From NCBI RefSeq assembly GCF_013122565.1, contig NZ_CP053258.1: 64,000 nt of DNA; one strand, given 5' to 3'. Made by a program: the position numbers and the translations under genes. Below the pieces are notes generated by a model. The model did not search any database. It saw nothing but the letters and a program-made list of their open reading frames with translations, and was not told where the DNA came from. This document shows, piece after piece, positions 4,335 through 4,508 of the stretch (position 1 is the stretch's first letter; every line of letters begins with the position of its first letter). Source of the DNA: Escherichia coli. GTDB taxonomy: Bacteria; Pseudomonadota; Gammaproteobacteria; Enterobacterales; Enterobacteriaceae.

Positions 4335-4508
4335 TTAGCAGGCGCGTATCCTCGCAGATCTACGCTCACGATGCGACAATTTAATCGGTTCTTCATCGGG
4401 TGGTGGGTCAGGCATGGGTTGCGGGCGAGGGATCGGATCGGGCACTGGAACAGGATCGCCAGGAATCGGTTCAGGGACAGGAATTTGCAAATAAATAAGT
4501 GTCGTCAT
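4335..4508 (-). CDS. Candidate small proline-rich protein (57 aa) immediately upstream of dbpA
   Basis: ATG at 4508 preceded by SD GGAGGG 4-5 nt upstream; translation MTTLIYLQIPVPEPIPGDPVPVPDPIPRPQPMPDPPPDEEPIKLSHRERRSARIRAC; below the 60-aa cutoff of the ORF track; stop 30 nt upstream of dbpA start. Confidence 0.3.
   Translation of the reverse strand: MTTLIYLQIPVPEPIPGDPVPVPDPIPRPQPMPDPPPDEEPIKLSHRERRSARIRAC

Follow-up and report, generated by a model that had tools for sequence, protein, structure and literature searches.

Directly ahead of dbpA, in the stretch of Escherichia coli DNA analysed here (the window; 64,000 nucleotides of contig NZ_CP053258.1), lies a short reading frame with a strikingly proline-rich product, and the question is whether this frame is a regulatory leader of dbpA or a gene in its own right. 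A sequence-only reading of the window had left both answers open, i.e. a stalling-prone upstream ORF acting as a translational sensor, or a real small protein below the 60-aa ORF cutoff. DbpA is a helicase of late 50S assembly, and hairpin 92 of the 23S rRNA is its target. The regulation of dbpA is essentially undescribed in the searchable literature, and leads arising from the upstream frame, ynaL, could reveal how it is controlled.

The reading frame ahead of dbpA is ynaL

The frame and its parts were located as follows.

4335 to 4508, minus strand: ynaL coding sequence, 57 codons plus TAA (ORF list, RefSeq WP_001296046.1, Pfam PF23677, dN/dS, PMC6001520)
4513 to 4518, minus strand: ynaL Shine-Dalgarno sequence GGAGGG (sequence; a GGAGG-type motif is kept in 30+ loci)
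4386 to 4481, minus strand: proline-rich acidic core, residues 10-41 (alignment, codon-position entropy, distant members, composition, AlphaFold)
4398 to 4406, minus strand: PPP codons within D-PPP-D, a predicted EF-P-dependent stall site (sequence, family conservation, context rule of PMC4176338)

The minus-strand ATG at 4508..4506, the GGAGGG upstream of it at 4518..4513 and the 57-codon frame that ends with TAA at 4337..4335 were all confirmed in the sequence. The spacing of the Shine-Dalgarno sequence, which had been called ideal, proved slightly short, with a gap of 4 nt (AAAT) between GGAGGG and ATG. The frame does end just ahead of the dbpA start, at a distance of 29 nt. Translation of 4335..4508 gave the expected proline-rich peptide MTTLIYLQIPVPEPIPGDPVPVPDPIPRPQPMPDPPPDEEPIKLSHRERRSARIRAC, with the reported PPP run at residues 35-37 (CCA CCA CCC, 4406..4398), where it stands within D-PPP-D (residues 34-38). 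Proline accounts for 16 of the 57 residues (28%) and for 50% of residues 10-41. By its overall share of proline, YnaL ranks first among the window's 214 Met-started ORFs of 50 aa or longer (all six frames), ahead of a runner-up at 17%. The RNA encoding the core consists of 44% C and 20% G, the most pronounced excess of C over G on the transcript. AlphaFold, run with the family alignment, modelled YnaL as extended and devoid of secondary structure (pTM 0.23), and pLDDT values of about 90 were obtained only within the proline-rich stretch.

In RefSeq the ORF is annotated as ynaL, encoding the "proline-rich small protein YnaL" (WP_001296046.1), between zntB and dbpA, the locus being 100% identical. 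Of 5426 complete E. coli genomes, 5392 contain the 551-bp region around it at an identity of at least 95%. The peptide matched the Pfam family PF23677 (YnaL) with E=2.2e-40 and a score of 136.8, residues 1-57 aligning with model positions 1-57. VanOrsdel et al. 2018 (PMC6001520) listed the exact YnaL sequence between fnrS and dbpA, detected YnaL as a chromosomally SPA-tagged protein by immunoblot and mentioned a positive result for ynaL in a tetracycline ribosome-profiling screen as well; adjacency to dbpA is their sole remark on its context, and the study concerns detection only, not function or regulation. The K-12 protein and the product of the ORF described here agree in sequence, length and position between fnrS and dbpA, with no difference between them. 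The suggestion of a real small protein was thus borne out by the RefSeq entry, by a Pfam family of its own and by detection of the tagged product. The gene is therefore not new; RefSeq, Pfam and the literature already cover ynaL, its product and its family. A search of the accessible literature for the function of ynaL or for the dbpA promoter yielded nothing beyond PMC6001520. YnaL counts among the validated small proteins of E. coli, and the comparison presented here narrows the hypotheses on its role.

Outside its own family, YnaL showed no profile matches except compositional ones to the polyproline region of TonB. The N-terminal polyproline region of TonB (PF16031; NF008084) and YnaL have an alternating X-Pro acidic stretch in common. 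A relationship to TonB was rejected, as the match (E=0.75 with Pfam, E=2.9e-4 with NCBIfam) lies far below the curated cut-off and reflects composition only, and as YnaL has neither the transmembrane nor the C-terminal domain of TonB. Several variants of ynaL were observed within E. coli, i.e. an in-frame deletion of 11 codons in the proline repeats (46 aa) and frameshifted alleles (L009, which is E69; P0088, P0110, P0137). Disruption of ynaL is, judging by such alleles, tolerated in individual E. coli strains.

The peptide is under purifying selection

A protein search yielded 164 relatives of YnaL, from Escherichia, Salmonella, Citrobacter, Enterobacter, Klebsiella, Raoultella, Kosakonia, Leclercia and others. 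Their alignment showed free variation over the N-terminal ~14 residues and conservation of the ~44 C-terminal residues, with two near-invariant segments, DPVPxPDPIPRPQPMPDPPPDEEPIK(L/M)SH and RSARIRAC. More distant members were obtained by a profile search of 1.8 billion representative proteins; these keep the proline-rich core and differ in their tails, and the part of the core that defines the family is residues 18-41, DPVPxPDPIPRPQPMPDPPPDEEP.

For comparison at the nucleotide level, 30 loci were taken from one-genome-per-species contigs, or 31 with the window included. The dbpA start could be located in 29 of these 31, the window being one of them, and the ynaL-dbpA arrangement was the same in all 29: a GGAGG-type Shine-Dalgarno sequence and an ATG for ynaL, a gap of 14-29 nt, then dbpA with a GTG start and 457 codons. 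Among 31 distinct ynaL sequences, the entropy was 0.82 at codon position 3, as compared with 0.235 at position 1 and 0.225 at position 2; the third position is thus 3.6 times as variable as the other two, an excess far beyond that of a chance ORF. Conservation of the reading frame as against conservation of the nucleotides had been named as a check on the ORF, and the pairwise dN/dS values of 0.04-0.24 for ynaL (0.02-0.06 for dbpA) indicated purifying selection on the frame across genera. Seen from these alignments, the peptide is under purifying selection, and especially so its acidic proline-rich core.

ynaL is linked to fnrS more widely than to dbpA

The surroundings of ynaL in the window comprise the following features, given in the direction of transcription.

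4570 to 4687, minus strand: fnrS, encoding the FnrS sRNA (Rfam RF01796, 134.8 bits)
4593..4574, minus strand: stem of the fnrS intrinsic terminator, followed by its U-run, directly upstream of ynaL (terminator scan)
4540 to 4567, minus strand: putative ynaL promoter TTGCCT-N16-TACCCT, overlapping the end of the FnrS terminator U-run
4306 to 4334, minus strand: ynaL-dbpA spacer of 29 nt, with no terminator and a fold of -4.0 kcal/mol
4319..4303, minus strand: weak 5-bp hairpin CACGA/UUGUG, including the dbpA GUG and part of the weak GAGA Shine-Dalgarno sequence
4316..4313, minus strand: dbpA Shine-Dalgarno sequence GAGA (a GAGA-type sequence is present in all loci with a located start)
2932 to 4305, minus strand: dbpA, encoding the ATP-dependent RNA helicase DbpA, with a GTG start and 457 codons, the same in 29 loci

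The putative promoter scored below the threshold of the promoter scan. Both of its hexamers (TTGnnn/TAnnnT) are kept in Raoultella, Kosakonia and Phytobacter while the spacer between them diverges. This element could be the promoter of ynaL; alternatively, ynaL could be expressed by read-through of the FnrS terminator. The hairpin over the dbpA start is kept across genera by way of changes from A-U to G-U pairs. The terminator scan revealed no intrinsic terminator between ynaL and dbpA in E. coli, and because nothing of this kind separates the two genes, they are very probably co-transcribed in E. coli and most Enterobacteriaceae.

The linkage on the other side of ynaL was found to be broader. 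FnrS lies directly upstream of ynaL in all 13 loci scanned, including those in which dbpA is not adjacent, and fnrS-ynaL linkage thus extends further among the loci compared than ynaL-dbpA linkage. In Phytobacter diazotrophicus (L035), Mixta mediterraneensis (L036), an Enterobacter sp. (L040) and a Scandinavium sp. (L042), the order is zntB-fnrS-ynaL, a terminator and a convergent ttcA, and no dbpA adjoins ynaL (adjacency being judged at the locus). The hairpins that follow the ynaL stop codon in these four have energies of -17 to -25 kcal/mol, as against -4 in E. coli. On an Erwinia-type contig (L038), a terminator hairpin directly follows ynaL, and ttcA stands between ynaL and dbpA. A leader and its target would be expected together; in these five loci ynaL is found without dbpA next to it. 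The retention of ynaL with a terminator of its own and no adjacent dbpA, along with a strong ribosome-binding site of its own, the selection on its peptide and its constant place behind fnrS, therefore marks it as a gene in its own right and not merely a leader of dbpA. That ynaL is a known, translated 57-codon gene of this kind, with a proline-rich and non-globular product, is the best explanation of the locus, and we consider it likely to be correct. The core of YnaL would then be selected independently of dbpA and tied to fnrS. This tight fnrS-ynaL linkage, together with a dbpA-linked invariant block at the 3′ end of ynaL, is all that goes beyond the published work that could be searched; both are modest leads.

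Two nucleotide blocks at the 3′ end of ynaL are invariant

Towards its 3′ end, ynaL contains two blocks that do not vary even at synonymous sites.

4371 to 4388, minus strand: block B, CCGATTAAA(T/A)TGTCGCAT, codons PIK(L/M)SH, invariant in 20-31 aligned loci, synonymous sites included
4341 to 4361 (strict core 4358..4341), minus strand: block D, AGATCTGCGAGGATACGCGCC, codons RSARIRA, a candidate dbpA-linked cis element

Block D includes an invariant run of 19 nt, whereas in dbpA, compared over 1371 nt in the same 29 genomes, no such run exceeds 5 nt and only 4.6% of third positions are invariant. Its sequence is unique in the window. Blocks B and D, which use the rare codons AGA, AGG and AUA, are present only where dbpA lies directly downstream and are absent from all loci with no adjacent dbpA. 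Two independent lineages have acquired earlier stop codons: ynaL ends with …PIKLSR* (TGA TAA) in one (L037) and with …PIKLSHR* (TAG) in the other (L041). In both, block D stands unchanged and untranslated ahead of dbpA, at a synonymous divergence of dbpA of 0.63-0.69 from the nearest full-length relatives. In Raoultella and Klebsiella, ynaL reads on past block D.

The tail of YnaL invites comparison with the arrest peptides SecM (…GIRAGP) and TnaC, with which it shares a variable N-terminus and a conserved C-terminal segment of ~44 residues, and its C-terminal RIRAC superficially resembles the IRAG motif of SecM. Unlike these, the RSARIRA(C) tail is conserved as nucleotides and not as a peptide; it is invariant in L037 and L041, where it is untranslated, further codons come after it in Klebsiella, Raoultella and some Citrobacter, and distant members lack it. 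A ribosome arrest peptide of the SecM/TnaC type was rejected on these grounds, i.e. conservation at synonymous sites, translation that does not always occur and absence from distant members. A termination-arrest motif "RIRAC-stop" was likewise rejected, since the type of stop codon varies (TAA/TGA) and several genera add codons after RAC. Because block D is invariant when untranslated and restricted to loci with dbpA, the RSARIRAC tail is best explained as a by-product of a dbpA-linked element. The last ~7 codons of ynaL overlap this element of 18-21 nt, and the "conserved residues" of PF23677 accordingly reflect in part a constraint on RNA or DNA.

The tri-proline motif and the expression of dbpA

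PPP is present in 146 of 156 YnaL family-like sequences, with synonymous variation in its codons; it is the combination of a conserved PPP and varying codons which indicates that the tri-proline is selected as peptide. It is replaced by PSP in E. albertii and the C. youngae group and by PPQ in C. amalonaticus, all of which keep the downstream dbpA. Polyproline produces the strongest of the stalls relieved by EF-P, and stalling is favoured by an Asp on either side of a diprolyl motif (PMC4176338); translation through the D-PPP-D of ynaL would thus be expected to need EF-P. Distant members often carry a second PPP, placed two codons ahead of their stop (…DPPPHR* or …DPPPHM*; L035, L036, L038, P0139, P0140, P0142, P0145 and P0147). 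The near-universal PPP and this second one could mean that stalling itself is selected, which would favour a regulatory reading. The conserved segment of ~44 residues is roughly as long as the exit tunnel, and this also fits a nascent peptide acting in cis.

Some dependence of dbpA on ynaL is plausible from the arrangement of the two genes, as a passive effect of how efficiently ynaL is translated. Ribosomes translating the C-rich core would keep Rho off the transcript, and they would terminate 29 nt before the weak GUG/GAGA initiation site of dbpA. Poor translation of ynaL would then lower the expression of dbpA as a side effect, through polarity or lost coupling, with no dedicated switch involved. 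In reporters, a polyproline sequence followed by a rut site caused a ~30-fold EF-P-dependent polarity, i.e. polyproline ahead of rut-like RNA led to strong Rho-dependent polarity when EF-P was lacking (Elgamal, Artsimovitch and Ibba 2016; PMC5021804).

It seems improbable that ynaL goes beyond this and serves as a dedicated sensor of EF-P or proline supply, in which stalling at D-PPP-D under limiting EF-P or Pro-tRNA alters dbpA expression via Rho loading on the exposed C-rich RNA or lost coupling and YnaL has no function in trans. The wide retention of PPP with synonymously varying codons would suit a sensor, as would the free variation of the N-terminal ~14 residues ahead of a conserved C-terminal segment, yet PPP has been lost to PSP or PPQ in several species despite an intact ynaL-dbpA arrangement. 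Although D-PPP-D is a strong staller context (PMC4176338), tagged YnaL accumulates at full length (PMC6001520), and the PPP codons lie ~95 nt upstream of the dbpA start, from where a stalled ribosome cannot reach the initiation region. The core is C-rich, G-poor and rut-like, and the polarity seen in reporters provides a precedent (PMC5021804); the leader, however, has no intrinsic terminator, a fold of z=-0.27 and no covarying structure, and no conserved alternative structure or attenuator was found between ynaL and dbpA. The weak dbpA initiation site so close to the ynaL stop codon would favour coupling, but two lineages have shifted the stop codon ~60 nt away from dbpA and retained dbpA. 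Finally, at least four lineages keep ynaL and its own terminator with nothing downstream to regulate, and ttcA intervenes in a fifth; the maintenance of ynaL in the absence of a downstream target and its wider linkage to fnrS therefore argue against a dedicated dbpA sensor.

A known parallel is provided by mgtL and mgtP, the leaders of Salmonella mgtA and mgtCBR (PMC5021804). Like these, ynaL is a short proline-rich ORF upstream of a gene, with C-rich RNA that could load Rho on stalling and a polyproline sequence predicted to need EF-P. Both leaders stand ahead of a defined attenuator or rut structure and are found only together with the gene they regulate, whereas ynaL has no conserved alternative structure, is 3-4 times as long, gives rise to a stable tagged protein and is retained where no gene adjoins it downstream.

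A cistron with two regulatory layers was also considered, and we rate it just as improbable as the dedicated sensor. Its polyproline C-rich core would be a Rho-loading site masked by translation, through which dbpA would report the capacity of EF-P or prolyl-tRNA, and its last seven codons would form a separate, sequence-specific riboregulatory site of dbpA, bound by an sRNA or an RNA-binding protein; without a neighbouring dbpA, the stall-prone ynaL, with its second PPP shortly ahead of the stop, would serve some other purpose tied to the anaerobic sRNA FnrS upstream.

Candidate roles of the invariant blocks

In the preferred reading, i.e. ynaL as a gene whose 3′ end overlaps a dbpA-linked element, blocks B and D call for a role of their own. 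Several candidates were tried and rejected. Mimicry of 23S hairpin 92, which would imply autoregulation by DbpA, found no support, as local alignments of block B, block D and the whole leader with the sense and antisense strands of E. coli 23S rRNA were no better than those of shuffled sequences. For pairing of FnrS with the ynaL-dbpA mRNA, the best duplex (-28.0 kcal/mol) was weaker than the mean for shuffled sequences (-29.3), and a 7-bp match to CGCCUGC is lost in Enterobacter. A conserved RNA structure at the ynaL 3′ end and the dbpA start was likewise rejected: the single-sequence z-score was -0.27, RNAalifold returned only tiny invariant hairpins with no covariation, and a putative GCG/CGC stem is broken by the change from GCG to GAG in Kosakonia. 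FnrS was the only Rfam family found in 3800..5200 at E-values up to 1.

Neither inspection by eye nor a scan revealed an acceptable hexamer pair for a sigma-70 promoter of dbpA inside blocks B and D, on either strand, and other sigma consensus sequences did not fit these blocks. Dual coding was rejected for a +1-frame ORF of 48 aa at 4250..4396 on the minus strand, over the ynaL 3′ and dbpA 5′ ends, the ATG of which is lost in at least six loci through a change from GAT to GAC; this ORF owes its apparent conservation solely to the invariance of the nucleotides that encode it. An antisense ORF at 4317..4553 was rejected too, as it would have variable first and conserved third positions. A hairpin of the CsrA type with GGA in its loop, UGCG[AGGAUA]CGCG, was observed in the block region and suggests CsrA as a candidate. 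A CLIP paper mentioning dbpA was looked for in the searchable literature, and none was found.

Of the sRNAs screened, ArcZ gave a pairing that is attractive as a duplex, although it is very unlikely to be the explanation of block D. In this case the block (4358..4341) would be an Hfq-dependent site controlling dbpA, at which UGCG-A-GGAUACGCGCC of the mRNA pairs with the processed ArcZ seed GGCGC-A-GUAUUC-G-CGCA; the ArcZ sequence was verified by Rfam. The best seed duplex within a 276-nt mRNA falls exactly on block D, with an 11-bp core and a further 4 bp, and its extent coincides with the limits of synonymous-site invariance. The energy of the block duplex, -22.6 kcal/mol, was matched by only 0.14-0.48% of shuffled or random 18-mers, but the same energy was reached somewhere in 13% of shuffled mRNAs (p=0.13). 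Once the opening of the hairpins in both RNAs is allowed for, the net gain is -4.6 kcal/mol, and 60% of in-place shuffles of the block were as good (cofold p=0.6). While more than 300 putative ArcZ targets use the same seed (PMC11331407), the searchable supplements of five interactome studies contained no chimera with dbpA or ynaL, and many sRNAs had been screened informally, with multiple testing uncontrolled.

A non-coding reading of the region and nearby observations

The reading that is hardest to credit holds that the ORF is not a functional gene and that conservation acts here on an RNA, be it an old candidate sRNA or an mRNA element, with incidental translation. A 75-nt "ncRNA", E2348C_ncR17, is indeed annotated inside the ORF in an EPEC genome annotation, and nucleotide-level constraint does exist in the 3′ third of the ORF. 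In the proline-rich core, however, variation is free at third positions and restricted at the first and second, dN/dS lies at 0.04-0.24, the genera compared share the frame, its start codon and the Shine-Dalgarno sequence, neither an Rfam family other than FnrS nor a significant fold was found, and the YnaL protein has been detected (PMC6001520). The codon-position pattern largely refutes a purely RNA-based explanation.

E2348C_ncR17 maps to 1575909-1575983 of EPEC E2348/69 (75 nt), which lies inside the present ynaL (supplement of PMC8550237). E2348C_ncR17 is probably the old candidate sRNA C0343, so that the early detection of a transcript at this site was likely that of ynaL mRNA. Two further small ORFs were observed in the window. 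One of 15 codons, at 5780..5827 on the minus strand just upstream of zntB, is annotated in RefSeq as "protein YnaN" and is possibly a small ORF of the leader type. The other is ymjE (52899..53063, plus strand, 54 aa), a known small-protein gene upstream of puuP (PMC6001520), which likewise contains a PPP run (…DWTPPPLLP…).
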